64,000 bases of DNA from an uncultured Verrucomicrobiae bacterium (GCA_963788655.1 CAWBHS010000059.1:1-64000), one strand, 5' to 3'. Shown: positions 2,921 through 63,561, counted from the first letter of the stretch. Numbers and translations are program-made. Notes: generated by a model from the sequence alone, not told the origin.

Positions 2921-3050
2921 GGCTAACGAATCAAGCTCAGGCACGGCTGCCCCGGCAGATCGGCCTGTGCGCAAAGGAGACAAACAATGAAGAACAAAAT
3001 AATGAACGCAGTGGAGTGGGGCAGACGTTGCCTGGAGCGCCTGGTTAGGC
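2921..3050 (-). mobile_element. attC site, array 1
   Basis: Minus strand reads GCCTAAC-CAGGC-GCTCCAGG...CCTGAGC-TTGATTC-GTTAGCC. The inverse core complements the preceding core GTTAGGC. Confidence 0.85.
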
Positions 3051-3345: not shown

Positions 3346-3471
3346 GCCTAACGACAAGGATCACCGACCGCCGCCGGAAACGGGCGCTGGCTGCGAATCC
3401 AGCGTCCGAAAAATCCGGCGCAACGAAACTGAAGCGCGGGGCGGCGGTTCGTGTGAATCCGATTGTTAGAA
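3346..3471 (-). mobile_element. attC site, array 1
   Basis: Minus strand TTCTAAC...GTTAGGC with paired internal arms. The inverse core complements the preceding core GTTAGAA. Confidence 0.8.
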
Positions 3472-3478
3472 ACTTCCT

Positions 3479-3812
3479 TCACAGTTTAGCTTTAGGACGA
3501 ACTATCCCGGCGATGCTGACCACGACAAGCAAAAGTGTAGATACCGCTACAACGCGCCTTAGCTTTGCGTGATCTTGGGTCAGCACATGACCATCTATGA
3601 TGGAGGGCTCACATTCACGAGCAAGAGCATCAGGCAATGCGACGAAATCGCGGTGCGACGAAAGCAGCGTCCTGTCGGGCGTCAACCTTAGCCAGTCTGC
3701 ATACCGTTTCTCGCACGAAGCCCGCGTACAGATCAACCTCTGGATTGGAATACCACCCAAAATAGCCGATGCAGATCCCGGCGATGAGCATGATAATAAA
3801 GAAGAACCTCAT
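3479..3812 (-). CDS. Cassette membrane protein, frameshifted
   Basis: Hydrophobic N-terminus MRFFFIIMLIAGICIGYF (3630-3812) and hydrophobic C-terminus in the 3479-3760 frame. Confidence 0.5.
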
Positions 3813-3818
3813 GCCTCT

Positions 3819-3914
3819 TTCTAACGATAGAACTGAGCGACGCGGGCGGCCCAGCGCGTCCGCATTGGCAACCGACGTGGCCCGCCCGCGTTCGCTCCAG
3901 TGATCTTGTTGGCC
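3819..3914 (-). mobile_element. attC site, array 1
   Basis: Minus strand GGCCAAC..CTGGAGCGAACGCGGGCGG...CCGCCCGCGTCGCTCAG..GTTAGAA. Confidence 0.85.
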
Positions 3915-3921
3915 GTGGTCA

Positions 3922-4338
3922 CTATTTCGTCGCCTCCTTCAACATCTCCTGCATCTTCTTGTCGCGCTTCATGGTGAAACCCATGATCTCGCCTGCATCT
4001 TCCGGCTTTAGGCTATCGTCCGCAGCATCTGTGTCGATGATCTTCCCATCTCGAATCAAAACCAGAAAGTAGTAAGGACTCTGCTCGTCACCCTGCAAAA
4101 ACTCGTAGTCAGGACTGTTCACGGTAATCGGCTTGGCAATCTCCGGAGTCAGTTCGCGGACGTAGAGCTTGAGGCCACTCTTGGTGGTGTGCTCCAGCTT
4201 GTAGTCGGGGGACGCCATGACCTCGGGAGCCGTCGCAGGAACGAGCCGCTTGGTCTTGGTAGATGAACCGCCTTCCTTCGAGCAGCCGATAAGGCAAAGC
4301 GTGGCGACGAGTGAAACGATGATGGTGCGTATGTTCAT
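3922..4338 (-). CDS. Cassette lipoprotein
   Basis: MNIRTIIVSLVATLCLIG-C lipobox; starts just after the intron 3' end. Confidence 0.75.
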   Translation of the reverse strand: MNIRTIIVSLVATLCLIGCSKEGGSSTKTKRLVPATAPEVMASPDYKLEHTTKSGLKLYVRELTPEIAKPITVNSPDYEFLQGDEQSPYYFLVLIRDGKIIDTDAADDSLKPEDAGEIMGFTMKRDKKMQEMLKEATK

Positions 4339-4353
4339 AAAGCGTGTAGTCGG

Positions 4354-5170
4354 ACCGGGTAGGCGTAGGCGGTCACCCGCCCACGCCCCCCTAAGAACCG
4401 GACTTGAAAGTTTCCCTTCATCACGGCTCAAGCCTCTCCAAGGCCACCCCGGATGCGGGGGACCCGCGTAACCAGGAGGCCGGTGACACCCAAAGGCGTC
4501 ATGGACCTTCCCAATCCCACTTGGCAATACCGGTCGGCGGCCATATCGCGCTCGGCTCCTTTGGGCCGCAGCACCGAGAGGCACCAAGCGACGGGCGTCG
4601 CTCGTCCTATGCTTCTCTCGCTTGAAGGGGTTCCGCTGATTTTCTTGCCAGGAGACACCAGATCGACGTGGGCATATCCGGTCCATTACCGACCGGCCTT
4701 GGCTTGTTCGATCCTCTTCATGCTGCCTCCCCTGGGCCTGCCTTGCGGTCGGCTTGCCTGGATACTCTCCAGGCGGGAACTGGCAGCTTTTCCATGTTCC
4801 GCATTCTCCACAGGATGGGTTAGGTCCACTCTCTACACCGGCGGTGCAACATTCGCGTCGGGCTACGTTAGACAGCCCGAACCTGACCGCTGGCCTTGTT
4901 TTGGCCGGAGCCTTAAAACAGCCTCGTTTGGCTCGTTCCTCTGACGATGCTTGCAAGTGTTCACATGGGTTGACCCTACCATCCGATTCTAGCGCCGCAC
5001 CCGGATTGAGGCTCCCAGGCTGGCTACATTGTCGGGAAGGCTTCACACCCTGGACAGTAGCCTTGCGGCCGCCCGTCCAACGCATGCTTCCCTGGAATAC
5101 CTGCCGCGAAAGGCAGGACTGAGTCAGGTTGCCCATGCTCAGCAGTGATGAATGCGACTTCATGTCACAA
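4354..5170 (-). mobile_element. ORF-less group II intron, copy 1 (817 bp), inserted in an attC core
   Basis: Domain V GAGCCGTGATGAAGGGAAACTTTCAAGTCCGGTTC at 4395-4429. Domain VI has a bulged A 7 nt from the end. An EBS1-like loop contains CTAACG. Near-identical to 60959-61775. No RT ORF. Confidence 0.9.
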
Positions 5171-5276
5171 CTAACGCCCAAGTGAGCGACCGGCGGCGTG
5201 AAGCGTTGGCCCACCCGGAACGCCTCGCGAGAAGCCCAGGGCGTGATCGCCGGTTCGCTCCACTGACTGGTTGTGC
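5171..5276 (-). mobile_element. attC site, core interrupted by intron copy 1
   Basis: Minus strand GCACAAC-CAGTC-AGTGGAGCGAACCGGCG...CGCCGGTCGCTCACT-TGGGC-GTTAG, then the intron, then CC. Confidence 0.85.
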
Positions 5277-5520
5277 CATTTCATGTCTGTTGGTGGACGG
5301 GGCCACGAATCGACAACGGCTCTCTGCCCGTCCGAACTGAATGCCGGTATCGAATCACTTCTGATCGCCAAACTCCAAATCCAATCTCCGTTTCGAACCG
5401 CTCCGCAAACCTCTCGTGATCGTCTCTGTCAGAAACCCATCCGAAGGCCCGGAACCAATTCATTCTTCGGCTTGCTCGTGACCGCGTGCCCGAACCGCAA
5501 CGGCACGACGCATTCAATCT

Positions 5521-5645
5521 GCACAACGTCAAAGGACACCGGACCCCTGACTGGGGGCGAGGCTTCGACTGTGGGTTGAGGGTTGAATCATCATAACGGC
5601 AAAACTCGAAGCGAGTCAGGGGTTCGGTGCTCCGCCTTGTTCTGC
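5521..5645 (-). mobile_element. attC site, array 1
   Basis: Minus strand GCAGAAC..CACCGAACCCCTGACT...AGTCAGGGGTCCGGTG..GTTGTGC. Confidence 0.8.
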
Positions 5646-5650
5646 AATCT

Positions 5651-6031
5651 TCATTTCCAGTTCACGCACGAACTCCTGAACATGGGAGTCCGGGTGCAGA
5701 GCTGTGATCCAGACCAGAATCCCTTCATTCCAAGAATCAGTGTACCACGCTGGTTCCGAACGGACCGGATAGCGTCGTAGCGGATAAATTTGCGAGTGTG
5801 TCCGAATCGGATAAGACGAACCCCATCATCTTCAATCCGGTATTCCACGCCATTCTGATCCAAAAAAGACGGAACCAGGACTGAAGCGAAGAGCACAAAC
5901 ATCGGTAAAACGAGGAACAGAGCGTATATCGGCTGCCGAAAGAGAACGACACCAAACAGGTAGCTGCTCAGCAGGATCAGCGAAAGGATCCCACCAAGGA
6001 CTCTGTATCGTGGCAGCGCGTTTACTGTCAT
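5651..6031 (-). CDS. Cassette membrane protein with two TM helices
   Basis: MTVNALPRYRVLGGILSLILL...; the ORF is bounded by two attC sites. Confidence 0.65.
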   Translation of the reverse strand: MTVNALPRYRVLGGILSLILLSSYLFGVVLFRQPIYALFLVLPMFVLFASVLVPSFLDQNGVEYRIEDDGVRLIRFGHTRKFIRYDAIRSVRNQRGTLILGMKGFWSGSQLCTRTPMFRSSCVNWK

Positions 6032-6042
6032 GGTTTTCTCTG

Positions 6043-6167
6043 GCAGAACGATGAGCTCAGCGACGTGCGCCGGGCGAAACGGTTGAGCGCACAATCCGCG
6101 CCCGAAGTCTCCCAGCACTCGGAACGGACTGGCGGGGCGCACGTTCGCTGAAGCGCTCTGGTTGGGC
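6043..6167 (-). mobile_element. attC site of the first cassette of array 1
   Basis: Minus strand GCCCAAC..GCTTCAGCGAACG...CGTCGCTGAGC-TCATC-GTTCTGC. The inverse core complements GTTGGGC at 6927-6933. Confidence 0.85.
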
Positions 6168-6881
6168 CGTTGTATGTCTTGGCGGCCTGTCTTGACGGTC
6201 TGGATGGTCGTAACTAACCGACTCGAGCAGAAGAACGGAGAGCTTCAGCAACGCATGAGTCCTGGCAGGGTCAATCCCAGCGCTGTTGTGGAGAAGACGA
6301 CGCGCAAACAACTCCACGAAATGCAGTCCCTGGCGCGTTTGCCCATTCTCAAAATGCTCGATTGCCCTATCAAGATGACCAAGCAGCAAGCGATACGCAG
6401 GACTTGGCGTGCCCTCGTCCTCGACCTCATCGCGCATGCCTTTCAAAAGGAAGGTCGGTGACTCCACGTTCAAGTAGACGGTTTGGTATCCCCACTCCGT
6501 GCCGTCAAACACGCCCAACCGCAAGACAGCGTAGCCGTGTCCAAATGAGCCCACTCCAAAGGTGTTGGTGGTCCTGATTCCTTCTGCAAACAAACTGTAA
6601 ATATACTGACTGTGCTCACCAACGTCACGCGTGAACCAGAAATATTGGAGGTCATCGTTGTCGGGATCGTAGGACAATGAGGCGTCAAGAACAACCTGGG
6701 CCGTTAGCCCGTTTGGTGCCAATACGTCAGCCTTAAGACTGCCGCCTGACAACGTGTAGCTCGCTACGATAGGCGGTGCTTCAATTGCATTCAAAACGAG
6801 AGGAATGGCTACTGGTGGGCTCTCTGCCAACAATGTGAATGCAGTTATTGTAAGAGCGCCAATGACTAACGCTGTCTTCAT
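6057..6881 (-). CDS. Cassette secreted protein with a PKD-like domain and helical C-terminal domain
   Basis: Signal peptide and VVLDASLSYDPDNDDLQYFW PKD-type motif. The ORF reads through attC, so the true stop may be earlier. Confidence 0.65.
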   Translation of the reverse strand: MKTALVIGALTITAFTLLAESPPVAIPLVLNAIEAPPIVASYTLSGGSLKADVLAPNGLTAQVVLDASLSYDPDNDDLQYFWFTRDVGEHSQYIYSLFAEGIRTTNTFGVGSFGHGYAVLRLGVFDGTEWGYQTVYLNVESPTFLLKGMRDEVEDEGTPSPAYRLLLGHLDRAIEHFENGQTRQGLHFVELFARRLLHNSAGIDPARTHALLKLSVLLLESVSYDHPDRQDRPPRHTTAQPERFSERAPRQSVPSAGRLRARIVRSTVSPGARR

Positions 6882-6926
6882 ATGTTTTCGCCTTTCTTAA
6901 TTTTCCACTGCGTGTGGATTTTTGCT

Positions 6927-6970
6927 GCCCAACAGTATTAATAAACGAAAATTTTTCGGTTTATCCGATT
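6927..6970 (-). mobile_element. Putative attI site
   Basis: GTTGGGC core with no attC-like upstream arm, lying between the first cassette and the divergent intI remnant. Confidence 0.6.
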
Positions 6971-7169
6971 TGCTGCGTTAACGTTCCCGCGCCCTTCATG
7001 CGACGTCAAGCCCAAAGTAAATTTTTCTTGCCTCCCCGCCAGCTTAGTTGTTGACTCCCAACGGTGGGTGTCTTGGGGCCCCAAGCTGGACCTTCCTGGG
7101 CGCCTTCCGGATAAACCGAAAAATTTTCGGTTTATCCGACGACGATTGGACCATCAATTGCGAAAACCA

Positions 7170-7666
7170 ATGGCAACAGTCCATTTCCCCGATTGGCCCG
7201 AGTGGCTGGCCAACGCCGACCTCCCCGAACGGCATAAAAGCAGTTTCGCCATCACCCTCCACTGGTACCTCAACTTCTGCCGCCGGGGCCGGGGCGAGGT
7301 CACTCATGACTCGGCCCGCGACTTCATCGCCTGTGTTTAGGTTCACAAACACCCGCAGCCGCCGGATAGGGCGAGACTCCGTCGAGCCCTGACTTTTCCG
7401 CATCATTTCCGCAATGCCGGCAACGTTGACGCGGGAAGCCTGAGCCGTTCGAAGACCAAACGTTTCCCTTGGCCCGGCAGGGGGTTGATGGGCGCGCTCC
7501 GGGGAAGTCAGGGCTCGACGGAGTCTCGCCCTACCAGGTGGTTGGGGGGTGGCGGCATTGCTTTGCGTCCCAACTGCTGGATCAGGGCACGGATATTGAT
7601 TCACTCACGCCCGCTCGCTCACCCCTGGCGGGGCTTGCGGCGGCGGCGCCATTTCTTTCGCGCTGA
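7170..7666 (+). pseudogene. intI: Integron integrase remnant with large internal deletions
   Basis: N-terminal piece MATVHFPDWPEWL..WYLNFC (7170-7340), then RHCFASQLLDQGTDI (tyrosine recombinase box II-like) and the IntI-type C-terminal RSPL. Divergent from the cassette array. Confidence 0.7.
7367..7533. repeat. REP-like inverted doublet with perfect 29-bp arms, inside intI
   Basis: tagggcgagactccgtcgagccctgactt at 7367-7395 and its reverse complement at 7505-7533. A related half-copy lies near 14900. Confidence 0.85.
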
Positions 7667-7811: not shown

Positions 7812-10800
7812 ATGACTACACGCAGATTTTATTCTGAAAAATCGTTTTATTGGCAGACCGCCCTCGCTGCTGTGCTGGCGTGCCTGGTTTTTGGGACCGT
7901 TTCCCATCTCCATGCCTGGCAAGCCGCCAAAGGACCGCTGACCACGCGTTGGACCCAGGAAGTTTCGCCGAACCATGCCTTGCCGGAATATCCCCGACCG
8001 ATGTTGGTCCGCGAGGCCTGGCAGAATCTCAACGGGCTTTGGGACTACGCCATCGTGGCCAAGGACGCCGCCCAACCCACCCAGTGGAACGGCCAAATCC
8101 TGGTGCCGTATCCCGTCGAATCGGCGCTGTCGGGCGTGATGAAAACCGCCGGACCAGACCACCGGCTTTGGTATCGGCGCACGTTTGCGGTGCCAACCGA
8201 TTGGAACGGCAAGCAAGTGCGGCTGCACTTCGGCGGCGTGGATTGGGAAACCACCGTCTGGGTCAACGGCCAGGAACTGGGCACGCATCGCGGTGGTTAT
8301 GATGGCTTCAGTTTCGACATCACCAAGGCGCTCAAAGCGTCCGGCCAGCAGGAAATCATCGTGAGCGTTTGGGACCCCACCGATGCCGGCTATCAACCAC
8401 GCGGCAAACAGGTGCAGCGCCCCGGCGGCATCATGTACACCTCCACCACCGGTATCTGGCAGACGCCGTGGTTGGAGCCGGTGGATGCGGCGCACATTGA
8501 ATCGCTGCGAATCACTCCGGACTTGGACAAGTCCGCCGTGGCGATCCAGTCGGCTTGTGTCGCGGGTGCGGCCAAAACGACGCTCAAGTTTGAAGTGTTG
8601 GCGGAACACCGATTGGTCCAATCCGGCGAAATCTCAGTCGCCGGCGCCCAAGGGGGGCCGATCATGCCGAAGATTCTGCTCAAAGTGCCCAACGTCCGTC
8701 CATGGTCGCCGGATGCGCCGTTTCTCTACGACCTGCAGATCACGATGCTGAGTGACGGCCAGGTGGTGGATCACGTGACCAGTTACTTTGGCATGCGCAA
8801 GATTTCGCTGGGCAAGGACACAAACGGATTCACCCGACTGCTGTTGAACAACGAACCGCTCTTCCAATTCGGTCCGCTGGATCAGGGCTTCTGGCCCGAT
8901 GGCTTGTACACGGCGCCGACCGATGAAGCGTTGCGTTATGACATCTTGATGACCAAGGCGCTGGGCATGAACATGGCCCGCAAACACGTGAAGGTCGAAC
9001 CGGAGCGCTGGTACTACTGGTGCGACAAGCTCGGTCTGCTGGTCTGGCAGGACATGCCCAGTGGCAACTTCGGCGGGCGCGACGACCAGCGGCGTTCGGA
9101 CGAAGCGTCGGCCCAATACCAACTTGAACTCCACCGCCTGATCGAAGGACGGTACAACCATCCGTCGATTGTGATCTGGGTGCCGTTCAACGAAGGTTGG
9201 GGCCAACACGAAACGCCGCGTTATGTCGGCTTGATCAAACAGTGGGATGCAAGCCGCCTGGTGAATGAAGCCAGTGGATGGACCGACCGTGGCAGCGGCG
9301 ACGTGAAGGACATTCATGCGTATCCCGGACCGGCCGCGCCGAAGCCCGAAGCAAACCGCGCGACGGTGTTGGGCGAATTCGGCGGCCTGGGATTGCCCGT
9401 CAGCGGCCACACCTGGCAGGCCGAAAAGAATTGGGGCTACCGCAGCTTCAAAGATTCCGCCGACCTTACCGCGGCTTATCGTGCAACTCATCAAGAAATT
9501 GCACCCGCTCATCGGCAGCCAGGGTTTGTCCGCCGCGGTCTATACGCAAACCAGCGACGTAGAAGTCGAAGTCAACGGTCTGATGACCTACGACCGCGCT
9601 TTGGTCAAGCCCGACCAGGAAGCCATCACGCGGGCAGACAAGCAGCTTTACCTGCCACCGCCGCCGCCCCCAATGATCGAGGCGCTGGTGCCGACCTCGC
9701 AGGATCGCGGCATCGATTGGCGTTACACCACAACCCAGCCAGCGGAGAATTGGTACCAACCCGGCTTGGAGACGGCCAATTGGAAAACCGGCCCCGGTGG
9801 CTTTGGAACCCGCGGCACGCCCGGCGTGGTGGTCCGCACCGAATGGAACACCAGCGACATCTGGTTGCGCCGGGAATTTGAGTTGCCGACCGATTTCAAG
9901 ACCGACCATCTGCAATTCATCATTCACCACGACGAAGATGCGGAGGTTTACGTCAACGGTGTGGAAGTGGCTTCGTTCACGGGCTACACGACCAGCTACG
10001 AACCGGCCCCGGCTTCCGCCAAACTCAAGCAAGCGTTAAAGCCGGGCAAGAACCTCATTGCCGTTCACTGCCACCAAACCGGCGGCGGCCAATACATCGA
10101 CGTCGGCCTGGCGAACGTAATCGAACGCGCATACGCCGCGCCCACGCCACCGGCCGGCGACTCGGCGGACGTTGAAACGGTGCGCCTCGTGGAACCGACC
10201 GTCCGGAACGGCCTCTACGTTCACAATCTCGCGCCGCTGGCGCCCAGTCCCTTCATGAAATTGCCCATCGGCATGCATCACGCCGCAGGGTTGGCTGCGT
10301 CATCAATTGGAAGTCGAAAAGGAAGGGATGATCGGCCACCTCGAAGAAATTTCTCCGTGGCTGGACTTCGCCAAGAGTTCCTGGACGGACAAGGAAGGCA
10401 AAGGCCGTTATGGGTGGGAGGAAATGCCGTATTGGCTCAAGGGCTACGGCGACCTGGGTTACGTGCTCAAGGACCAGGCCATCATTGCTGACACCCGCAA
10501 ATGGATCGAGGCCGCCATGGCGTCGCAGCGCGAAGACGGCTGCTTCGGCCCGCGCGAATTGCTCGCCTCGCTCAACGGCAAGCCCGACCTCTGGCCGCAC
10601 ATGGTCATGTTGAACATTCTCCAGTCCTATTACGAATTCACCGGCGAACCGCGCGTCCTGGACGTCATGAACGCGCTATTTCAAATGGGAGAACACGCTG
10701 CCGGCCACCGCCTTCGGCGAAGGGTACTGGCCGAAGATTCGCGCCGGCGACAAATCGAAAGCATTTACTGGCTATACAATCGCCTCGGTCCGGACAACGC

Positions 10801-12599
10801 CGGCGGGCTGCTTGATCTGGCCCGAAAAATCCACGAACACATGGCCGCGCTGGGACGAGGACGTCATCAACTGGCACAACGTCAACATCGCCCAGGGCTT
10901 CCGCGCCGGCACGGTCTATGGGATGCAGGATCCGAACCCGGATCTCCGCTACTCGGCCGAGCGCAATTACGACGAAGGTGATGCGCCTGTACGGCCAGTT
11001 CCCGGGCGGTGGCTTCGTGGGCGACGAGAACTGCCGGCCCGGTTACATCGATCCGCGCGGCGGCATCGAGACCTGCGGCATCGTCGAGTTCATGCACAGC
11101 TTCGAGATGCTCACCAAGATCACCGGCAACCCGGTCTGGGCGGACCGTTGCGAAGAGATCGCCTTCAACACCTTCCCGGCCGCGCTGACGCCCGACCAGA
11201 AAGGGCTGCACTACATCACCTGCGCCAACCAAGTCCAGCTGGATCGCGACAACAAGTCGCCCGGCATCCAGAACGGCGGGACGATGTTTGCCTACAGTCC
11301 GTTCGAACGGTATCGCTGCTGCCAGCACAACGTCTCCCACGGCTGGCCTTATTACGCCGAGGAACTCTGGCTCGCCACCCCGACAACGGCCTGTGCGCTT
11401 CGCTTTACGCTGCCAGCGAAGTCAGCGCCAAGGTCGGCGAGCGGCACCACGGTGCAAGATCACCGAAGACACGGACTATCCGTTCAGCGACACCGTGACG
11501 CTCAAGATATCGCCGCCGTCAAGGCCATCGACATTCCCGCTCTATCTTCCGCGTGCCCGCGATTGGTGCGACAACGCGCCGGATCAAGATCAACGGCAAG
11601 GACGGTGACAGTGAACTGCCGCGCCACTTTCCTATCTGGTCCTGAAGCGCGACTGGAAGGACGGTGACACCGTCGCGTTGAAACTGCCGATGAAGGTCTC
11701 CGTTCGCGAATGGCCAAGAACAGGATTCGGTTTCCGTGAGATTACGGTCCGCTGAGCTTCTCGCTGGACATCAAGGAACGTTGGGAACGATACGGCGACG
11801 CGATCCGAAGTGGCCGGAACGAATGGGAAGTCTTTCCCGCATCGCGACTGGAACTACGGCCTGGTGCTCGACGAAAGCAATCCGGCGAAATCATTTCAAG
11901 TCGTGAACGAAATCCGGACCCGTGGCGGCGCAGCCGTTCACCCCCGAGACGGCGCCCATCCGATCAAGGCCAAAGCGCGCAAGATTCCGGGCTGGCAGGT
12001 GGATCGGTTGAACTTGGTAGGCCGGCTGCAACCCAGCCCGGCCAAGATCCGACGAGCCGGTGGAGACAATCACGCTCATTCCCATGGGCGCGGCGCGCTT
12101 GCGCATTGCTTCGTTCCCCACGGTGACCACCGGCCCGGAAGGCCACGAATGGGTGGCCCCGCCCAAACCCAAACCTTCGTTGTACCGCGCCACGGCGTCC
12201 CATTGTAATCCCAATGACACGGTCGAGGCCCTGGGCGATGGTCTGGTGCCGGCCAATTCCAATGATCAAAGCATTCCCCGCTTCACGTGGTGGGCACACA
12301 AGGGCACCGAGGAATGGGTGCAATATAACTTTAAGGAACCCATGAAAGTCTCCGGCGTCTCGGTCTATTGGTTCGACGATACCGGAATGGGAGAATGCCG
12401 CGTGCCGGCGTCTTGGAATGTTCTTTATCAGCAAGGCGACCAGTGGAAGCCGGTCGAAGGTGCGTCGGCCGCTGGCACCAAACGCAACACGTGGAACCCG
12501 GTGAAGTTCCAACCGGTCGAAACCACGGCGCTCCGGCTCACAGTGCAACTCCAACCGGGCGTCTCCGGCGGCATCCTGGAGTGGAAGGTCGAGAAGTAG
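7812..12599 (+). CDS. Secreted GH2 plus GH127-like (beta-L-arabinofuranosidase family) fusion with a C-terminal discoidin-like domain; multiple frameshifts
   Basis: GH2 motifs LHFGGVDW, GPLDQGFWPDG, RKHVK, WVPFNEGWG and LGEFGG. GH127-type motifs WEEMPYWLKG, WHNVN, ETCGIVE, CCQHN and LIPMGAARLRI. The linker between them (about 10110-10270) is stop-free. Confidence 0.8.
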
Positions 12600-18532: not shown

Positions 18533-19514
18533 CGATACCATTTCGCGCGAAGGCTGCTTCAGCGGTGAATGCCCTGGGAATGCCCGAACTAAGCGGCGGC
18601 GCCTCCGGCTGTTCCCTCTCCCCGCGGGAGAGGGTTAGGGTGAGGGGGAACGCGATGTCCGGACCAGGCATCCGCCCGGAAATGGCGGGCGGCACGGCAG
18701 GAACGCTTTTAGACGGTACGCATCGCAGAGCGGTTCCTTCCCCCTCACCCCGGCCCTCTCCCCAGGGGAGAGGGAGCCCGTTCGGCCGCGAGGCACAGGA
18801 ATGGATGGCAGTCCAACCTCCGATACCGTTTCGCGCGAAGGCTGATTGGGCGGGGAATGCTCTGGGAACGCTCAAACCAATTGGCGGCGCCTCCGGCTGT
18901 TCCCTCTCCCCGCGGGAGAGGGTTAGGGTGAGGGGGAACGCGATGTCCGGACCAGGCATCCGCCCGGAAATGACGGGCGGCACGGCAGGAACGCTTTTAG
19001 ACGGTACGCATCGCAGAGCGGTTCCTTCCCCCTCACCCCGGCCCTCTCCCCAGGGGAGAGGGAGCCCGTTCGGCCGCGAGGCACAGGAATGGATGGCAGT
19101 CCAACCTCCGATGCCGTTTCGAGCGAAGGCTGATTGGGCGGGGAATGCTCTGGGAAGCTCGAACCAATTGGCGGCGCCTCCGGCTGTTCCCTCTCCCCGC
19201 GGGAGAGGGTTAGGGTGAGGGGGAACGCGATGTCCGGACCAGGCATCCGCCCGGAAATGGCGGGCGGCACGGAAGGAACGCTTTTAGACGGTACGCATCG
19301 CAGAGCGGTTCCTTCCCCCTCACCCCGGCCCTCTCCCCAGGGGAGAGGGAGCCCGTTCGGCCGCGAGGCACAGGAATGGATGGCAGTCCAACCTCCGATG
19401 CCGTTTCGAGCGAAGGCTGATTGGGCGGGGAATGCTCTGGGAACGCTCAAACCAATTGGCGGCGCCTCCGGCTGTTCCCTCTCCCCGCGGGAGAGGGTTA
19501 GGGTGAGGGGGAAC
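18533..19514. repeat. Tandem array of about 3.4 x 288-bp units, each with two opposed REP-like palindromes
   Basis: Unit starts at 18533, 18821, 19109 and 19396. Palindromes: ccctctccccgcgggagaggg and ccctcaccccggccctctccccaggggagaggg. Confidence 0.95.
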
Positions 19515-26532: not shown

Positions 26533-26706
26533 ACACCATCTGCGTTGACCGCCTTCTTGGCTAACGCCTGCCGCACCTGGAAGAAAGCTGGATAAAGCCA
26601 GCAAAACGGCATCCTCCACTCAAGAAGCCAAGCGGCAACAAACGTCAGGCAGTTCCATCAATGGCCGGAATCGGAAGCTTTGCATCACGGCGGCCTCGCT
26701 TGACCT

Positions 26707-28941
26707 CGCGGGTGGGGACAACACGTTTGATGTCTTCGGCCTGCCGGCCAAGGGCGGACCATCCCCACGCGGGTGGGGACAACGCTGCTGTTGCCACGTT
26801 CTGCTGCGCAATTGCATGCGGACCATCCCCACGCGGGTGGGGACAACGATCACGGCTCAGGAGCGGACAATTGCCGCAGCGGACCATCCCCACGCGGGTG
26901 GGGACAACGTCGTCGTGATGTCGTCGGCGATGCCGTATCCGGACCATCCCCACGCGGGTGGGGACAACAATTCGAGGCTCGTCGCGATCAGCGCGATCAC
27001 CGGACCATCCCCACGCGGGTGGGGACAACGCACGCGTCGCGCCAGAGCCGTCGCCAGTATCCCGGACCATCCCCACGCGGGTGGGGACAACCCAGCATGT
27101 GCACGCCTTGATGGCGCAGAGTTCGGACCATCCCCACGCGGGTGGGGACAACTCGGTGACCTGGCAGAGCAGACTCATCGGCCGCGGACCATCCCCACGC
27201 GGGTGGGGACAACCGAATTATTCGCCGTGCAAGTAACGCGCCCAGACGGACCATCCCCACGCGGGTGGGGACAACGACACGCCTGAGCTTCCACGAGCCG
27301 TAGTCACCGGACCATCCCCACGCGGGTGGGGACAACTCGCCGATGGCCAACGCAGGTACACAGCCATCGGCATGACTCGGACCATCCCCACGCGGGTGGG
27401 GACAACGAGCTCAGATCGCGAATCCATGGTCACGATGGCGCGGACCATCCCCACGCGGGTGGGGACAACCGCAGCTCAGGCTAGAAGCTCATGTCGTGCA
27501 CGGACCATCCCCACGCGGGTGGGGACAACCCAGCGATTCGCCACGAATCCCGTCACGCGTGACGGACCATCCCCACGCGGGTGGGGACAACGCCACCAGC
27601 GCCGGCCACGGTGTTGCCCTGTAGCGGACCATCCCCACGCGGGTGGGGACAACGCCACGATGCCAAAGGGCATTACGATGTTCCACGGACCATCCCCACG
27701 CGGGTGGGGACAACGCAGCCTGGACGCGCGGGCAGCCGTCATGCCGACGGACCATCCCCACGCGGGTGGGGACAACATCCCAGTGCCGGCTCAGTCTGGC
27801 CAGGGAAGTGCGGACCATCCCCACGCGGGTGGGGACAACTCTGATCGACGTATCGCAGGAAGTTGGCGTACGCGGACCATCCCCACGCGGGTGGGGACAA
27901 CGCGGCGAATCTGTCAGCACCAACTGGATTCGGACCATCCCCACGCGGGTGGGGACAACATCAGCATGGTTGTCGCAGGGCATTCGAAGCCGGACCATCC
28001 CCACGCGGGTGGGGACAACTATCGTTGATTGAAGCTTTACAAACGATTGCTGCGGACCATCCCCACGCGGGTGGGGACAACTTAGCCACTCGACGCAGCA
28101 ACGCCTGCGCAACGACGGACCATCCCCACGCGGGTGGGGACAACCGTCCGCAGTCTGGCGCACGCTGATTGCCAGCGCGGACCATCCCCACGCGGGTGGG
28201 GACAACTGATGCGCATGCGTCTTGAACTGCCAGACAACGGACCATCCCCACGCGGGTGGGGACAACCGAGCTGGACGTTCGCATGACTCAGCATGTCGTC
28301 GGACCATCCCCACGCGGGTGGGGACAACGCGCCAGTAGGTTCCCGTTGACGCTCTGATACGCGGACCATCCCCACGCGGGTGGGGACAACCGATCCTGCA
28401 TCCGTGGTTCGCCAGTACCGTGCAACGCGGACCATCCCCACGCGGGTGGGGACAACTGATGCACATGATTCACATGCGCAGGCAACAACGGACCATCCCC
28501 ACGCGGGTGGGGACAACGCCGACTGCATCGTCAGCAACATGATGCAGGGCGGACCATCCCCACGCGGGTGGGGACAACCAGCTCGATCTCGTCAGCGTTC
28601 AGACGCATCTACGGACCATCCCCACGCGGGTGGGGACAACGATGGCATCGCTGACGCTAGAGCCATGCCAGCGGACCATCCCCACGCGGGTGGGGACAAC
28701 TGCCATCGAATCGCTCAGTGACGTCGCGCAATCGCGGACCATCCCCACGCGGGTGGGGACAACGTCAGACAGCTGCGCACTCGGCACAGATCACGGACCA
28801 TCCCCACGCGGGTGGGGACAACCGATCGAGCGCGCGCTCATGCTCAGCTAAGCGGACCATCCCCACGCGGGTGGGGACAACGCCGACGCCAGCGCCTCAG
28901 GTCGTACAAGCTCGGACCATCCCCACGCGGGTGGGGACAAC
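26707..28941 (-). CRISPR. Type I-E CRISPR array: 37 repeats (leader-distal one truncated) and 36 spacers
   Basis: 29-bp repeat GTTGTCCCCACCCGCGTGGGGATGGTCCG. Spacers are 29-41 nt, mostly 31-34. Confidence 0.99.
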
Positions 28942-28991
28942 AGTGGATTATCAACCAGTTAGAGATGGGATTTCGCGGTTCATGGGGTAAA
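28942..28991 (-). promoter_or_regulatory. CRISPR leader (short)
   Basis: Relatively AT-rich 50 bp between the cas2 stop and the first repeat. Confidence 0.6.
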
Positions 28992-29291
28992 TCAGAAGGG
29001 GCAGTTTTCGGGTTCGATCCATTTTTCGGCCACCAACCACAGACCGGAAAGCTCGGTGTCCCGTCGATGGGTTTCGCCGTAGGTTTCGATTTTGAAGCCC
29101 TGGCAATTGTTGTCACTGGAGACGATGAGCATGCCCAAACCTTCGGCATTGCGCTTGATGTAGGCGAGCGTTTTGTCCCGCGTACGCCGGTTCAGGGTAC
29201 CGACAAACACATTGGGACGTGGCTCAATAAACCAACGCTTGAGCATGCCGCGAATGGCATCCGGGGTATCATTGGCAACGATGACGGTCAC
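28992..29291 (-). CDS. cas2: Type I-E Cas2
   Basis: MTVIVAN..P..IRGMLKRWFIEPRPNVFVG..N.QGF. Confidence 0.95.
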   Translation of the reverse strand: MTVIVANDTPDAIRGMLKRWFIEPRPNVFVGTLNRRTRDKTLAYIKRNAEGLGMLIVSSDNNCQGFKIETYGETHRRDTELSGLWLVAEKWIEPENCPF

Positions 29292-29334: not shown

Positions 29335-30183
29335 TCACGGTTTGGCCTCGGGGGCGAACAGGGCCTCGAGGTCTTTGGGCAGGCGGGCCAGGAGTTTTTC
29401 CTCTTCCACCCGCTGCTTGAGCAGTTTGCGGGTCAATTCACCGTCGTCATCCGGTTTTTGCCGAATGGCCTGGAACGCGGCGGGGATGCTGGTCAGGTGC
29501 TTGTAGAGGTCGGCCACGTCGTAAATGAACGGCAGCGTGCCCGCGTCGTGAACAAACCCGAGACTGGGCAGGTAGCCCAACGAACAGACCACCGCCGCGC
29601 AGAGCGCATAGAGACTGGCATTGGCGGCCGACAGGGCTTTGTTGATGCCGTCGGCAATGTCCCAATTGCTCTTGTTGTAATTGCGGCCTTTCCAGGTGAC
29701 GCCGTGCTTGAGGCCCATTTCGGCGTAAAGCGTCCGCACGCGCAAGCCTTCCATGCCGCGCAATTCCTTGATCGACCGGCTGGCCACGTCCACGTCCGGA
29801 AAACGCATCCGGAACATGCGCCGGGCCACCTCCGTGCGCCGCTTCTTGTCGGCCCACACACTGGCGTGATATCGGGGCATGTCGTTGTCGTGATTGGGCG
29901 CCAGCCCGAAGGCGTAGAACCGCATCACTTCCTCGCCGGTCCAGCAGACGGGCGTGTTGGAGTCGGCGCACGCTTTCATGGCGGCGTGGGTGACGGTAGT
30001 GCCGGGTCCCAGCAGGAGCGCGGACACCGTAGCCACCGGCAACCGGCAGAGCAACCCGTCGGCGCCAATCCATTTCACGCTGGAATCGTCCACCTCGATC
30101 CGGCCATGTTCGAGGTAAATCGGGGTCCAACGGTCGCGGGCCATGGCGAGCGTTTCGAGGGGTGGGCGTTCGAAGATGGGCAT
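29335..30183 (-). CDS. cas1: Type I-E Cas1
   Basis: YLEHGRI, LLLGPGTTVTHAA, LRGMEG, LGFVH and FIYDVADLYK. Confidence 0.97.
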   Translation of the reverse strand: MPIFERPPLETLAMARDRWTPIYLEHGRIEVDDSSVKWIGADGLLCRLPVATVSALLLGPGTTVTHAAMKACADSNTPVCWTGEEVMRFYAFGLAPNHDNDMPRYHASVWADKKRRTEVARRMFRMRFPDVDVASRSIKELRGMEGLRVRTLYAEMGLKHGVTWKGRNYNKSNWDIADGINKALSAANASLYALCAAVVCSLGYLPSLGFVHDAGTLPFIYDVADLYKHLTSIPAAFQAIRQKPDDDGELTRKLLKQRVEEEKLLARLPKDLEALFAPEAKP

Positions 30184-30236
30184 GGGAGGAAGAAAGGATG
30201 AATTATGAATTATGAGGGATGAAGTGCATGAGAACG

Positions 30237-30485
30237 TCAATGGCCGCCATACAGGATTGAATCGATGTCTCGAGGGCGAGTTTTACTTTTGGGGCTGGGG
30301 GTGGCGCGTTGGGCAATGGTGAAGAATGGATCGGCGGCGAGATCGCCCGAAGCGTTGCTGACCAGAGGTCCCAACTGCGCCGCCGGGTGCCCGCGGTACG
30401 AAAGGACAAAACACTCTCCGTCCGCAACGTGCCGAAGGATGCCTTTGGTGTTCTTCCGAATCTCGAGCAGGTTGATGGTCTTCAT
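30237..30485 (-). CDS. Phd/YefM-family antitoxin
   Basis: MKTINLLEIRKNTKGILRHVADGECFVLSYRGHPAAQL has the Phd-type pattern. Confidence 0.8.
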   Translation of the reverse strand: MKTINLLEIRKNTKGILRHVADGECFVLSYRGHPAAQLGPLVSNASGDLAADPFFTIAQRATPSPKSKTRPRDIDSILYGGH

Positions 30486-30752
30486 ACGGAGGAATCGTCA
30501 TCATAGACTACCGATTGCCGCCAGATTCCGTAGCGCAGGGTTGAAATTTGCCAGGTGCTACTCCATTCCAGGCAGGCTTGGGAGTTACGGACGGCTTGCC
30601 GAATGCAATTGGGCGATAAAGCAGATTGAAAATCTGCGCTACAGAAAAGTGTAGCGCCCGCCGCGTTTACGTCGCGCGAACTCACCGGCGAGGATACCTG
30701 CGCTGCGAACTCGCTGACGAAGTCCACCCTGTAGAATTGGATCATTTCGAGT

Positions 30753-32541: not shown

Positions 32542-32612
32542 GCGATTGGTTGGTGGTTATTAGTTAGGTGTTGAGAGTTGAAACATGCGAGGGGGAGCGA
32601 TAGCTTTTGCCC

Positions 32613-32819
32613 ATGAGCACGGTAAAAGAAATCGAAGCTGCCATTGAAAAACTGCCCCGCCAAGAATTGTGGCAGTTGAAGGCGCATTTGGACTGCCGCT
32701 GCGAAGCGGAATGGGACGCGCAAATTGAAGAGGATGCACGGCCGGACGGTCCGTTGGACAATCTAGCACAGGAAGCCATCGCTGAATTCAAGGCGGGCCG
32801 CTGCACTCCGTTGCCGTGA
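32613..32819 (+). CDS. Putative antitoxin
   Basis: MSTVKEIEAAIEKL...WDAQIEEDA...G.LD.LA..A; overlaps the toxin start (GTGA). Confidence 0.75.
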   Translation: MSTVKEIEAAIEKLPRQELWQLKAHLDCRCEAEWDAQIEEDARPDGPLDNLAQEAIAEFKAGRCTPLP

Positions 32820-56138: not shown

Positions 56139-56236
56139 CCACTGGGTAATATTGGCGAATTTCAAGAGGTGTCACCCCTCTTCCAACGTTCCGAGCTTGT
56201 CTCGGCACGACCATCGACTGGTTGGGCGGTGTTGCC

Positions 56237-58315
56237 TCAACTGTGGGGAGGTGTCCACCGAAACATCATCACGTGGTTCAGACCGGCGTTTTCGAGGAAC
56301 AGGACATACTCACCGTTCTTGCGGAGGGTGACGTTCAGGGCGTTGTCCGAGTCAACGCAACCGCCGCTACCCTTGAAGCCGTTGATGTCCGGACGAATCG
56401 TGCCGACGTAGCCGCCGTCGTCCAACTGGTGGACGCGGATCAGTCCGTAGCCATAAGCGACGAAGAGGTATTCGCCGCGGGCCTGCATCGCCACCGGCGC
56501 GCCGCCGCCGTAGCCGGTGTCTGGAGTGTACGACTTATCATTGAGCGGCAGATTGATTTTCCAGTGCTTGATCCTCTTGGTCGGATCGGACCAATGATCG
56601 TAGCGGACCAGCACGTTGCACGCGTTCTCGTCCGTGCCGGGTGAACCGCCGACGATCATGAGGTCCTCACCCGGGACGTAGAATAGCCGCCGAAGCCGGT
56701 CGCCGGTGAACTCCGGCGGGTAATGGTAGGACACCTCGGAGGTCCGGCGATAGATGGGGTTGCCGCGCGGGTCAATCCCTTCGCAAGGGAGATGGAAGAT
56801 CGTCCCGTCTCCCGAGCATTGCCAGATGCCGGCCGCGGCATCCAGGTGCATGAAGCCCCAGCGGGGCTTGCGGTCCACTGCGGCGAACTCCACGGCGTCT
56901 GGCGCACCGTTGCCGTTCGCGTCGGTCCAGATGAAGGTTTCAGCGTCCTCGGGCCAGCGTTTGCCATTCCCAGGGCGCCAGGTGCTGGCACCCGCCACAT
57001 ACCCGCACGGCGCCGCCACACAGCCTTGCTCGCCGAACTTGTAGATCTCCAGGTTGCCGGTGCCCTGAGCGCCGCAGTAGAGGAAGAGATTGCCGCCGAT
57101 CCGCCGCACGCCATTGATCAGGCGATGGCTCGGACCGTGGAGGTCCGTCACCCGGCTATCACTGGGATACTTGAAGCGATCAACGCTCAGTCCAATCAGT
57201 GACTGCTCCTTACCAGGAGGCTTGTTCCAGTCCATGCTGAAGACGTTCTCCTTGGTGTAAACGAGGTTCTCATTGGCTGGGTCGGTACAGGCCGTATCCA
57301 ACCAGTTGCCCAGCCCGTAAACGTCCCAGAGGCGCTCTCCGGCTGGGGAATAGGCTTCGATCAGGGCGTTATACCAGGAGCCAAAGACACTGGCCACATA
57401 GAGATTGCCGGCCGCGTCGAAGCCGAGGCCGCGAATCCAATGGAACTTCTGGGGCTGGTATTTTCCCGGCTCGCCCGAAAAGATGCCGCCTTCCGTGCCA
57501 AAGGTGCCCACCTTCCTGGGCGTCCCCGCGACATCGTAAATCCAGATCTGGCTGTGCCGGTTCAACCCGCCCACCAGCAGTTGACCCTTCGGACCAAACG
57601 TCAGCGCACAGGGATTCTCGAAGTCGGTGATCTCCGGCCCGGGCTGACCCTGCTTGGAGAAGGAGATGATCTTCAGGCCGCCCCGATCGAACGGCTCCTT
57701 GCCGGGCTTGCCTTGAACGACCCAAATCTGACCGTTATCACCGACCGCGATCGGCCCTGGGCTCGGGGCGGCGAAGGAGCGAACCTCCTTCATCGTCGCC
57801 GTCTCCAGGACCCGGACTCTGCCTGCCTTGGAATCGCTGAGGTAAAGCTCGCCGCTGCGCAAGGCCAAGCCATGAATGCTGCCGCCGGTGCTCGGTGTGC
57901 GGTTGTAGGCTTCGTCCCCGAGGCGCGTGCGGAAGAGGCCGGCCCCGGTCCCGATGTAAACGTGGGCATCGTCCACCGCGACCGCGGATGCGCTGCTGCC
58001 AAAACCGCTGTCATAGTCGTACTTGGTGACGAACTTGCCGGCCTTATACGAGGCGACTCCGCCGTAGCCTTCAGCCACACCCGCGGAGAAAACCGTCCCC
58101 TCCGGCGTCACGGCAATAGCGATGGCGGTGACCGGCACCGATTGGTGCCCCTTCTGAGTGGCGAACGAGTTCATGAGCCAGGAATGGACGACGGTGCCAG
58201 GCAGGTCGCTCCCCGACAGGGTGTCTCCGGCTTGGACACGACTCAGGTCGAGCATGCACAGGCAGGCCAGCGCAAATTTATAGAAATGGTGTTTTCGCAC
58301 AAATATCCGGTTCAC
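56237..58315 (-). CDS. Secreted beta-propeller-like protein (692 aa) carried as a gene cassette
   Basis: Signal peptide and NHL/SMP-30-like repeats. Flanked by core GTTGGGC (58342-58348) and complementary inverse core GCCCAAC (56221-56227); its own attC is truncated. Confidence 0.75.
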   Translation of the reverse strand: MNRIFVRKHHFYKFALACLCMLDLSRVQAGDTLSGSDLPGTVVHSWLMNSFATQKGHQSVPVTAIAIAVTPEGTVFSAGVAEGYGGVASYKAGKFVTKYDYDSGFGSSASAVAVDDAHVYIGTGAGLFRTRLGDEAYNRTPSTGGSIHGLALRSGELYLSDSKAGRVRVLETATMKEVRSFAAPSPGPIAVGDNGQIWVVQGKPGKEPFDRGGLKIISFSKQGQPGPEITDFENPCALTFGPKGQLLVGGLNRHSQIWIYDVAGTPRKVGTFGTEGGIFSGEPGKYQPQKFHWIRGLGFDAAGNLYVASVFGSWYNALIEAYSPAGERLWDVYGLGNWLDTACTDPANENLVYTKENVFSMDWNKPPGKEQSLIGLSVDRFKYPSDSRVTDLHGPSHRLINGVRRIGGNLFLYCGAQGTGNLEIYKFGEQGCVAAPCGYVAGASTWRPGNGKRWPEDAETFIWTDANGNGAPDAVEFAAVDRKPRWGFMHLDAAAGIWQCSGDGTIFHLPCEGIDPRGNPIYRRTSEVSYHYPPEFTGDRLRRLFYVPGEDLMIVGGSPGTDENACNVLVRYDHWSDPTKRIKHWKINLPLNDKSYTPDTGYGGGAPVAMQARGEYLFVAYGYGLIRVHQLDDGGYVGTIRPDINGFKGSGGCVDSDNALNVTLRKNGEYVLFLENAGLNHVMMFRWTPPHS

Positions 58316-60299: not shown

Positions 60300-60408
60300 G
60301 CCGAACGTGGAGGTCACCGACCGGCAGAAAACCAGAAAGGAAACGGATGCCAAACAAACATGAAACTGACACGCAGGCAGCCGGTTCGCGTGAACCGATT
60401 GGTTCGGT
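60300..60408 (-). mobile_element. attC site, array 2
   Basis: Minus strand ACCGAAC..GGTTCACGCGAACCGGC...GCCGGTCGGTGACC..GTTCGGC. Confidence 0.8.
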
Positions 60409-60591: not shown

Positions 60592-60687
60592 ACCGAACGC
60601 CAAGAGGACCGATGAGCGGCACCCCGAAAACGTTCGAACTGTAAACTGACGCGCTTGCCGCTCATTCGGTCGCTCGATTGGTTAGCT
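60592..60687 (-). mobile_element. attC site, array 2
   Basis: Minus strand AGCTAAC..GACCGAATGAGCGG...CCGCTCATCGGTC..GTTCGGT. Confidence 0.8.
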
Positions 60688-60948
60688 GATCGCATTATAA
60701 AAGGCATAAATCATCCACAAGGTCAACATCCCAGCTATAGCACCTGCAATCTTGTCCGCACCAGACTTCCGGAATAAAGCCACCGCCGACATGGCCAAGC
60801 ATAGAAGCAAACTGATCGAACCCACCGCCCAGACGTAATGCGGAATCGGCCGACCATTTGCAGGAGTCAAAGCGGGAAGAAATACTCCAGCAAAAAGTGC
60901 CATAATGATCGCGCTGATTCCTCTCCAAGATGGGATGTAGGCCGCCAT
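60682..60948 (-). CDS. Cassette small membrane protein, three TM helices, 88 aa
   Basis: Hydrophobic ORF starting just after the intron 3' end; the stop codon overlaps the inverse core. Confidence 0.7.
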   Translation of the reverse strand: MAAYIPSWRGISAIIMALFAGVFLPALTPANGRPIPHYVWAVGSISLLLCLAMSAVALFRKSGADKIAGAIAGMLTLWMIYAFYNAIS

Positions 60949-60958
60949 AATTCTTTAG

Positions 60959-61775
60959 ACCGGGTAGGCGTAGGCGGTCACCCGCCCACGCCCCCCTAAG
61001 AACCGGACTTGAAAGTTTCCCTTCATCACGGCTCAAGCCTCTCCAAGGCCACCCCGGATGCGGGGGACCCGCGTAACCAGGAGGCCGGTGACACCCAAAG
61101 GCGTCATGGACCTTCCCAATCCCACTTGGCAATACCGGTCGGCGGCCATATCGCGCTCGGCTCCTTTGGGCCGCAGCACCGAGAGGCACCAAGCGACGGG
61201 CGTCGCTCGTCCTATGCTTCTCTCGCTTGAAGGGGTTCCGCTGATTTTCTTGCCAGGAGACACCAGATCGACGTGGGCATATCCGGTCCATTACCGACCG
61301 GCCTTGGCTTGTTCGATCCTCTTCATGCTGCCTCCCCTGGGCCTGCCTTGCGGTCGGCTTGCCTGGATACTCTCCAGGCGGGAACTGGCAGCTTTTCCAT
61401 GTTCCGCATTCTCCACAGGATGGGTTAGGTCCACTCTCTACACCGGCGGTGCGCCATTCGCGTCGGGCTACGTTAGACAGCCCGAACCTGACCGCTGGCC
61501 TTGTTTTGGCCGGAGCCTTAAAACAGCCTCGTTTGGCTCGTTCCTCTGACGATGCTTGCAAGTGTTCACATGGGTTGACCCTACCATCCGATTCTAGCGC
61601 CGCACCCGGATTGAGGCTCCCAGGCTGGCTACATTGTCGGGAAGGCTTCACACCCTGGACAGTAGCCTTGCGGCCGCCCGTCCAACGCATGCTTCCCTGG
61701 AATACCTGCCGCGAAAGGCAGGACTGAGTCAGGTTGCCCATGCTCAGCAGTGATGAATGCGACTTCATGTCACAA
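60959..61775 (-). mobile_element. ORF-less group II intron, copy 2 (817 bp), inserted in an attC core
   Basis: Same length and sequence as 4354-5170, apart from a 2-nt difference seen near 61452. Removal restores GTTAGCT, the exact complement of the cassette inverse core AGCTAAC. Confidence 0.9.
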
Positions 61776-61899
61776 CTAACGCCGAGATGACCGACAGCTT
61801 TGGGAGCGCCAGCCTCGACTGGAATTATCGGTTTCAAGTTTCATGGTCGATGTCCGCTGCGAGGCGGGTGGGCTGTTCGGTCAATCGACATGGTTGGAC
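61776..61899 (-). mobile_element. attC site, core interrupted by intron copy 2
   Basis: Minus strand GTCCAAC..TGACCGAACAGC...GCTGTCGGTCA..GGCGTTAG, then the intron. Confidence 0.85.
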
Positions 61900-63435: not shown

Positions 63436-63561
63436 GCCGAACGCCAAGCGTGAGCGACCGCCGCTGAGGAGCACGGTGGTAAGCAAACGGCCCGTCCGAA
63501 TTCCCGCCCGGCATCGAGCGGACAGGCGGGGCGGCGGTTCGTCTCCACGCGCTGGTTGGGC
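63436..63561 (-). mobile_element. attC site, array 2
   Basis: Minus strand GCCCAAC..CGTGGAGACGAACCGCCG...CGGCGGTCGCTCACG..GTTCGGC. Confidence 0.85.

Follow-up and report, generated by a model that had tools for sequence, protein, structure and literature searches.

A Group II Intron without a Reverse Transcriptase Gene in Two Integron attC Sites of an Uncultured Verrucomicrobiae Bacterium

How does a ribozyme that carries no reverse transcriptase (RT) gene come to sit, twice and at the same position, in integron attC sites? The question is raised by a 64,000-nucleotide (nt) stretch of DNA from an uncultured Verrucomicrobiae bacterium (GCA_963788655.1, CAWBHS010000059.1:1-64000), called the window below, which holds two nearly identical copies of an 817-nt group II intron on its minus strand. 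The likely answer is that this element is an intron of subgroup IIB1 without an open reading frame (ORF), that it shares its sub-lineage with UHB.I2, an intron already published, and that it reached its two attC sites by retrohoming with a helper acting in trans. Until 2021, integron-associated introns were class C and antisense; UHB.I2 then suggested, on its own, a second and sense-oriented mode (PMC7923331; this and the other papers are cited from excerpts). A sequence-only reading of the locus had described an ORF-less group II intron programmed against the attC core and had taken it for a different, possibly undescribed kind of attC parasite. The anatomy that it described was borne out by the analysis; the novelty was not.

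The element is confirmed as a group II intron without an RT gene, present twice:
4354..5170, minus strand (5' end 5170, 3' end 4354): copy 1 of the ORF-less group II intron, 817 nt, found by Rfam RF02012 and RF00029, with boundaries from alignment with RT-encoding relatives
60959..61775, minus strand (5' end 61775, 3' end 60959): copy 2, 817 nt, found by the Rfam matches and by comparison with copy 1

A search of the window with Rfam at the gathering (GA, curated) thresholds gave four matches in total, all on the minus strand. In copy 1, these are RF02012 (group-II-D1D4-7) at 5118-4993, with 63.2 bits against a GA of 34, and RF00029 (Intron_gpII, domains V/VI) at 4431-4354, with 49.6 bits against a GA of 40; the matching positions in copy 2 are 61723-61598 and 61036-60959. 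Relaxing the threshold over the element's region added nothing more of note. The second copy, which the sequence-only reading had announced, runs from 61775 to 60959 and is identical to the first at 815/817 nt. The sole difference is two adjacent bases at element positions 322-323, 10 nt after the hairpin that displays exon-binding site 1 (EBS1), which read TT in copy 1 (window 4849-4848) and GC in copy 2 (61454-61453). Since the printed text of UHB.I2 reads UU at this position, the older state is probably the one retained by copy 1. The block common to both copies starts with TTGTGACATG (5170 / 61775) and ends with CCTACCCGGT (4354 / 60959), read on the minus strand. Directly upstream, both copies have GGCGTTAG, after which the flanks diverge; downstream, ...GGT|C is common, followed again by divergence.

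The class of the ribozyme was approached through its relatives. A distant-mode blastn of the whole element against 72,556 plasmids matched 252 records, all of them in domains V/VI only (~723-816), and none of the 252 covered at least 80% of the element. RF02012 is also present in two RT-encoding introns reached via these matches, one on the K. pneumoniae plasmid pENVA (125.5 bits) and one in P. frederiksbergensis (67.8 bits). The RT of the pENVA intron matches PDB 6ME0 chain C with an E value of 3.4e-211, and the 6ME0 intron (Th.e.I3/T.el4h) is a IIB1 intron with a chloroplast-like 1 (CL1) RT (PMC8643678). An alignment of the element with the two RT-encoding introns has a mean column identity of 66%. 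A scan of genome contigs with a domain V pattern found 14 further loci, in cyanobacteria, Clostridium, and a Chitinophagaceae metagenome-assembled genome; blastn matches them to element positions 735-815 only in 8/14 and to nothing in the other six, all 14 end in the canonical AC, and RF02012 is found in just one. By homology, then, the ribozyme is assigned to subgroup IIB1 (CL1 type) and not to IIC.

This assignment bears on the best-known family of introns that reside in integrons, the group IIC-attC introns. These use a short intron-binding site 1 (IBS1) together with recognition of a stem-loop and lie near the inverse core, and IIC ribozymes are not known to be as large as 817 nt without their ORF. 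The association with attC would speak for membership in this family. The element has a domain I family common to CL1 introns, a 6-nt EBS1, a segment at the EBS2 position, an AGC triad in domain V, and no RT. It also lies in the sense orientation, whereas IIC-attC introns enter the bottom strand, so that they run antisense to the cassettes, and they encode an RT (PMC3001079), a contrast that the sequence-only reading had rightly drawn. Membership in the IIC-attC family is almost certainly to be rejected.

All six domains of a group II intron can be placed on the element. The minimum free energy (MFE) fold of the whole molecule is uninformative for a group II intron, and domain-wise folds were used:
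4791..5170, minus strand: domain I (element 1-380), from domain-wise folding, motif coordinates, and the RF02012 match
4722..4787, minus strand: domain II (element 384-449), stem GCUGCC/GGCAGC, from the domain-wise fold
4660..4714, minus strand: domain III (element 457-511), from the domain-wise fold, with J2/3 AUGAAGA just before it
4430..4659, minus strand: domain IV (element 512-741), ~230 nt, in which neither an RT ORF nor a remnant of one could be detected
4395..4429, minus strand: domain V with AGC triad (element 742-776), from the RF00029 alignment and four aligned relatives
4354..4391, minus strand: domain VI (element 780-814) with the 3' terminus GGU, from RF00029, the alignment, and the domain-wise fold

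The basal stem of domain I, read by eye, pairs element 7-19 with 367-379. In group II introns, domain V is a hairpin of 34-35 nt with a catalytic triad and a bulge, and domain VI has a bulged branch-point A at 7-8 nt from the 3' splice site. The fold of the element's domain VI likewise leaves the A at this position bulged (A811, window 4360), and its distance to the 3' end is 7 nt. As for the missing protein, the only ORF in domain IV (75 amino acids) has no Pfam match, a three-frame translation of the domain holds nothing recognizable, and blastx of the element against three IIB-type RTs gave a best E value of 0.99, which leaves no RT remnant. The lack of a CL1 RT in domain IV makes the element a non-autonomous derivative; it does not exclude the ribozyme from the lineage.

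The ends of the intron are unusual. At positions that are conserved as GUGYG...AY in group II introns, the element has UUGUG...GU. In a MAFFT alignment of the 5' ends, TTGTGACATGAAGTCGC of the element stands opposite GTGCGACGTGAAGTCGC of the pENVA intron and GTGCGACACGAAGTCGC of the P. frederiksbergensis intron, so that the relatives have the form GTGCGAC(G/A)(T/C)GAAGTCGC at this place. This means that the intron begins at the first T and that position 1 is U, not G; the 5' terminus (5166..5170, minus strand) is the consensus GUGYG with G1 changed to U. At the 3' end, CCTACCCGGT stands opposite CCTACCCGAT or ...GAC of the relatives. The four relatives aligned terminate in GAU or GAC and the element in GGU, a change of the penultimate A to G. 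The non-canonical termini that had been read from the sequence are thus real features of the homologous positions. Two other starts were considered and ruled out, one base earlier (the G before UUGUG) and two bases later (GUGAC), since neither fits the alignment to relatives or the register of EBS1.

Where, then, does the intron sit? Eight attC-like sites of 96-130 nt were found, all on the minus strand, in two clusters of four (2.9-5.3 kb and 60.3-63.6 kb) that are ~55 kb apart. Each has ....AAC at its start, GTT.... at its end, and an imperfect palindrome between, with imperfectly complementary arms (...GAACCG(C/G)C... / ...G(C/G)CGGTCG...) and unpaired extra bases on the minus-strand 5' arm. 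The sites, and the ORFs that follow the two copies, are as follows:
5171..5276, minus strand: attC B, interrupted by copy 1 after GTTAG of its R' core; R'' GCACAAC, L''/L' arms, GTTAG, and one long imperfect bottom-strand hairpin
61776..61899, minus strand: attC D, interrupted by copy 2 after GTTAG; from pattern and fold
2921..3050, minus strand: attC F, empty, R' GTTAGCC (CGTTAG|C); from pattern and fold
3346..3471, minus strand: attC A, empty, R' GTTAGGC; from pattern and fold
3819..3914, minus strand: attC G, empty, R' GTTAGAA, the attC of the cassette bearing copy 1; from pattern and fold
60300..60408, minus strand: attC C, empty, R' GTTCGGC; from pattern, the MFE fold not being a single hairpin
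60592..60687, minus strand: attC H, empty, R' GTTCGGT, the attC of the cassette bearing copy 2; from pattern and fold
63436..63561, minus strand: attC E, empty, R' GTTCGGC; from pattern and fold
3922..4338, minus strand: cassette ORF of 138 amino acids with a lipoprotein-like N-terminus and no Pfam match, its ATG 15 nt downstream of copy 1
60682..60948, minus strand: cassette ORF of 88 amino acids, its ATG 10 nt downstream of copy 2 and its stop within R'' of attC H

Folding of the bottom-strand DNA gives one long arm-to-arm MFE hairpin in 7/8 sites, C being the exception. The sites alternate with short minus-strand ORFs, most of them without a Pfam family; exceptions include an S26 signal peptidase (E 8.4e-27) and an ORF of DMP19-like type (E 5.1e-11). 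The orientation of the copies is that of the cassette ORFs, as had been claimed: the intron, the two ORFs just named, and the adjoining downstream ORFs are all on the minus strand. As seen in the window, both arrays are clusters of attC sites without an integrase (CALIN), and the right-hand array may extend past the window end. Directly adjoining the right-hand cluster is a gene for an IS110-family transposase (58647-60029, plus strand).

Both copies are inserted after the fifth base of the attC R' core (GTTAG^C; CGTTAG^C), which is where the insertion had been placed. The integrase crossover falls between core bases 1 and 2 (PMC8876359). Since the insertion lies 5 nt downstream of this G^TT crossover, the intron belongs to the untranslated 5' end of the cassette that follows, in agreement with the sequence-only reading, and would move with that cassette.

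Could the two copies have arisen without any activity of the intron itself? An immobile relic, copied by DNA duplication, gene conversion, or integrase-driven cassette movement, would agree with the lack of a helper RT in the window and with the view that ORF-less introns are rare in bacteria and do not persist (PMC4424553). This is unlikely, however, as the identity of the two copies ends exactly at the intron ends plus the common core bases. The upstream attC arms differ, as do the downstream ORFs, which are unrelated to each other, and from this it follows that no cassette or larger segment was copied; the two insertion sites are independent. An attC is also missing at the element's own 3' end, and hence it is not an integron cassette; with the differing flanks, this rules out its having been copied along with one. 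The identity of 815/817 nt points to recent spread. Together, the precise ends, the different flanks, and the near identity favor recent retrohoming, on two occasions, over a duplication at the DNA level.

In the proposed explanation, then, the element would have reached two different attC sites by retrohoming, in which reverse splicing into DNA is followed by reverse transcription. The target would be picked mainly via the 6-base-pair EBS1-IBS1 pairing CUAACG:CGTTAG, which takes in the base before the core and core positions 1-5. Two further contacts probably assist, a C at exon position +1 (with the EBS3 candidate) and an EBS2 pairing at -12..-9 that is short and weaker. The segments concerned are the following:
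4858..4880, minus strand: EBS1 hairpin, with EBS1 CUAACG at 4871-4866; 6/6 pairing, in register with a relative
4938..4941, minus strand: EBS2 candidate GAGG (element 230-233), at a position homologous to the EBS2 of relatives
4856, minus strand: candidate EBS3 (G315), which follows the EBS1 stem at a distance of two bases

The EBS1 hairpin reads TCGGGCT-GTCTAACGT-AGCCCGA at 4880-4858 and has the 9-nt loop GUCUAACGU. In both copies, CTAACG pairs 6/6 with the last six bases of the 5' exon, CGTTAG, the match that the sequence-only reading had described. The loop is in register with the pENVA loop TAGCTG, which pairs 6/6 with its own exon, CAGCTA. For EBS2, the rule for IIB1 introns is a 5-base-pair pairing at -13..-9 from an internal loop before ID(iv) (PMC8643678), and the segment before a conserved GAAC pairs 5/5 with exon -13..-9 in both RT-encoding relatives. 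The corresponding segment of the element is one base shorter and pairs at -12..-9, with 4/4 pairs (one of them G-T) for the exon of copy 2 and 3/4 for that of copy 1. For EBS3, the three aligned introns read G/A/T in the candidate column and C/T/A at exon +1, so that 3/3 covary; the support is weak because nine columns of this alignment show the same pattern.

How far these pairings account for the choice of site can be seen by comparing occupied with empty sites. CGTT is found in 8/8 attC sites and CGTTAG in 5/8, with CGTTCG in C, H, and E. The combination of CGTTAG, a C at +1, and at least 3/4 EBS2 pairs is found only in the occupied sites B and D of the eight. Of the three empty sites with CGTTAG, A has the wrong base at +1 (G), F falls short in the EBS2 pairing, and G does so on both counts. 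Site F had been put forward as an empty homing target at 2928-2921, and this stretch is indeed its R' core. The IBS1 and the +1 C are in place there, but the IBS2-position segment makes no Watson-Crick pair with the EBS2 candidate, so the case for homing into it is weaker than the sequence-only reading had assumed.

A helper RT would be needed in trans because the element is without one. The RT/maturase may be supplied by a related intron elsewhere in the genome, or may have been supplied by a former host. The one RT-like fragment in the window, at ~55.5-56.2 kb, was considered as the helper and rejected, being truncated after RT motif 2, closest to IIC RTs, and below the threshold for RF02005 in its domain I. 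It is the 5' portion of a second, unrelated group II intron (55470-56170, minus strand) just after the stop of an NHL-repeat ORF (56237..58315). Its RF02005 match scores 30.9 bits (E 8e-7), no domain V could be found, and there is a 102-amino-acid ORF with RT motifs 0-2 only, closest to the class C RTs 5HHL and 7UIM (E ~1e-12).

Once in place, the intron would travel with the downstream cassette, in its 5' untranslated end. Splicing, if any, would restore the cassette transcript to ...CGUUAG|C.... One could consider that the host or the cassette keeps the intron as a cis-acting control of expression with splicing as the switch, instead of merely tolerating a parasite. The intron ends 15 nt (copy 1) or 10 nt (copy 2) before an ATG, and IIC-attC introns are known to alter cassette expression (PMC3001079). 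Against this, the spacing of 10-15 nt is what any insertion into these attC cores would give, since each core immediately precedes a cassette ORF, and a promoter scan of 3800-5400 gave no promoter-like site. Such a role is very unlikely.

The second half of the answer concerns kinship with UHB.I2. This is a full-length IIB1/CL1 intron of 2201 nt with a 500-amino-acid En-minus CL1 RT, described from a soda-lake metagenome contig (LFIK01005957), where it lies among cassettes (Sonbol & Siam 2021, Mob DNA 12:8, PMC7923331). It is oriented as the cassettes are, directly after an attC, and has the boundaries 5'-UUGCG..GU-3'. Its attC is given as c(7295..7364) and the intron as c(5096..7296); the attC call thus reaches 2 nt into the intron, the same geometry as GTTAG+TT in the element. 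The sense orientation and the position at the R' (3') end of the attC are common to both. So are the odd termini: UUGCG..GU and UUGUG..GU both fit 5'-UUGYG...GU-3', with the same pair of changes. By eye, the two also agree in the 5' end, in a GUG(C/U)GAAGCCUUCC block, in a CCUAACCC block, and in the surroundings of the EBS1 hairpin, and around the hairpin approximately three quarters of the bases match, clearly more than with the pENVA intron. The loop at the EBS1 position is GUAGAACGU in UHB.I2 and GUCUAACGU in the element; read by eye, the last four EBS1 bases, AACG, are alike, and the 9-nt loops differ only at two bases that would face core positions 4-5. These two bases, next to the unchanged AACG, lead to a predicted IBS1 of CGTTCT for UHB.I2. 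The comparison suggests that the element and UHB.I2 form one unusual IIB1 sub-lineage with UUGYG...GU ends and sense insertion at the R' end of attC.

It is on this point that the sequence-only reading is only partly supported. It inferred a different, non-autonomous attC-parasitic ribozyme, with the reservation that absence from the literature could not be confirmed; taken strictly, this would be an undescribed class, unrelated to any published attC intron. The 2015 review lists attC insertion, in the excerpts cited, only for class C introns (PMC4424553), to which the element clearly does not belong. The literature found likewise contained no paper on an ORF-less attC intron, nor any report of sense attC IIB1 introns beyond PMC7923331. 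UHB.I2, however, matches the element in orientation, attC position, odd termini, and subgroup, and by eye is very similar in the 5' region and the EBS1 loop. Thus an attC-targeting intron of this kind had already been published, an outcome that the sequence-only reading had itself listed as refuting it, and an unrelated, undescribed class is improbable.

Several points weigh against the proposed explanation. The likeness to UHB.I2 was judged by eye on ~400 printed bases, and there is no close relative of the element among the 14 loci found with the domain V pattern. The attC sites were called by a pattern of our own and by eye; in folding energy they do not stand out (z -0.3 to -3.8), A and G being the only two of the eight to beat all 200 shuffles. 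No integrase or other tyrosine recombinase was found in 108 of the 114 ORFs of at least 150 amino acids (six ORFs of a CRISPR array were omitted). No RT of the right class lies in the window, so the helper is something we infer. The EBS2 pairing is weak for copy 1 (3/4, one of them G-T), and the C at the EBS2a position (4943), judged by the rule in PMC8643678, pairs with neither -13 nor -14 in either copy. The rule that separates occupied from empty sites was fitted after the fact to two positives. Finally, U1 and the penultimate G replace conserved residues, and competence for splicing is predicted only.

What would such an intron mean for integrons? A second independent occurrence, in a different host, with two copies and no RT, makes the sense mode look like a lineage and not an accident; the missing ORF, the recent insertion at two sites, and the occurrence in another host suggest a real attC-homing IIB1 sub-lineage. 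A simple rule for reading the target is also indicated, namely pairing of EBS1 with CGTT and two more bases of the core. Lying inside the integron's mobile unit and spliceable from its transcript, the intron would link retrohoming to integrase recombination, and it could affect both cassette expression and attC function. Position 1 and the penultimate residue of group II introns interact in catalysis, and the paired change to U1 and G in two members amounts to natural covariation at two residues.

A broader scheme can be offered tentatively, and may well prove wrong. There would be a dedicated IIB1/CL1 sub-lineage, marked by U1 and the penultimate G, that homes to the integron core by RNA-DNA pairing. 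In it, an invariant EBS1 AACG would read CGTT at the R' end of each attC, and the two 5' bases of EBS1 would be adapted to the variant of the core at hand, which is AG in this host and, by prediction, CU for UHB.I2. Inserted sense just beyond the crossover, the intron would be a spliceable passenger of the 5' untranslated end, carried by the integrase, and the ORF-less copies would be miniature derivatives, mobilized in trans, that spread through cassette arrays.

Other features of the window may be recorded here. Between the two cassette arrays is a CRISPR region, in which an array of at least 37 repeats (29-nt repeat, ~61-nt period) adjoins a type I-E cas operon on the minus strand (positions 26704-29000 and 29335-38282); the operon contains Cas1, Cas5, Cas7/CT1975, Cas6e-like, Cse2, Cse1, and Cas3. 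Tandem repeats are found at 18533-19514 (~288-bp units, 3-4 copies, 88-97% identical, near the start of a GH106 rhamnosidase ORF) and at 43675-44638 (~241-bp units, four copies), and a related 49-nt motif is also present at 38432 and 47788. At 10307-11664, the catalytic domain of a GH127 beta-L-arabinofuranosidase is split over two overlapping plus-strand ORFs (profile 61-208 and 257-375), which suggests a frameshift or a sequencing error.

The place of the element among known systems can now be given. With the IIB1/CL1 introns EcI5, Th.e.I3/T.el4h, and that of pENVA, it has the domain I family RF02012 in common, and in the aligned CL1-type relatives the 5' end, EBS1 loop, EBS2 position, and domains V and VI all align with it. 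Introns of this type have the canonical ends GUGCG...AU/AC and an RT of ~560 amino acids; the element has neither. The IIC-attC introns (S.ma.I2 and relatives) prefer the integron attC as their target and lie between cassettes, as the element does, but they are class C, antisense, and RT-encoding (PMC3001079, PMC4424553), whereas the element is of IIB1 type, sense-oriented, ORF-less, and inserted after R' core position 5. A further system compared with the element is likewise sense-oriented in an attC, but is of class C and has an RT. The ORF-less bacterial introns that are mobilized or spliced in trans, for example in Thermosynechococcus (Simon et al. 2008, as summarized in PMC4424553), are, like the present one, ribozyme-only derivatives in multiple near-identical copies; their RT-encoding relatives are known in the same genome, while the element is known from the 64-kb window alone. 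For an ORF-less intron, the attC target is new. Closest by eye is UHB.I2, which has its RT, whereas the element, in 817 nt, has neither RT nor remnant and is present in two copies, in a different host whose DNA is 60% G+C. The authors of UHB.I2, in the cited excerpts, report no exon conservation and suggest a role for the attC hairpin (PMC7923331); for the element, EBS1 pairing with the core CGTT looks like the main determinant of target choice. What is new here is that the ORF has been lost, that there are two insertions, both recent, and that a second host is involved; the kind itself has been described once, in UHB.I2.

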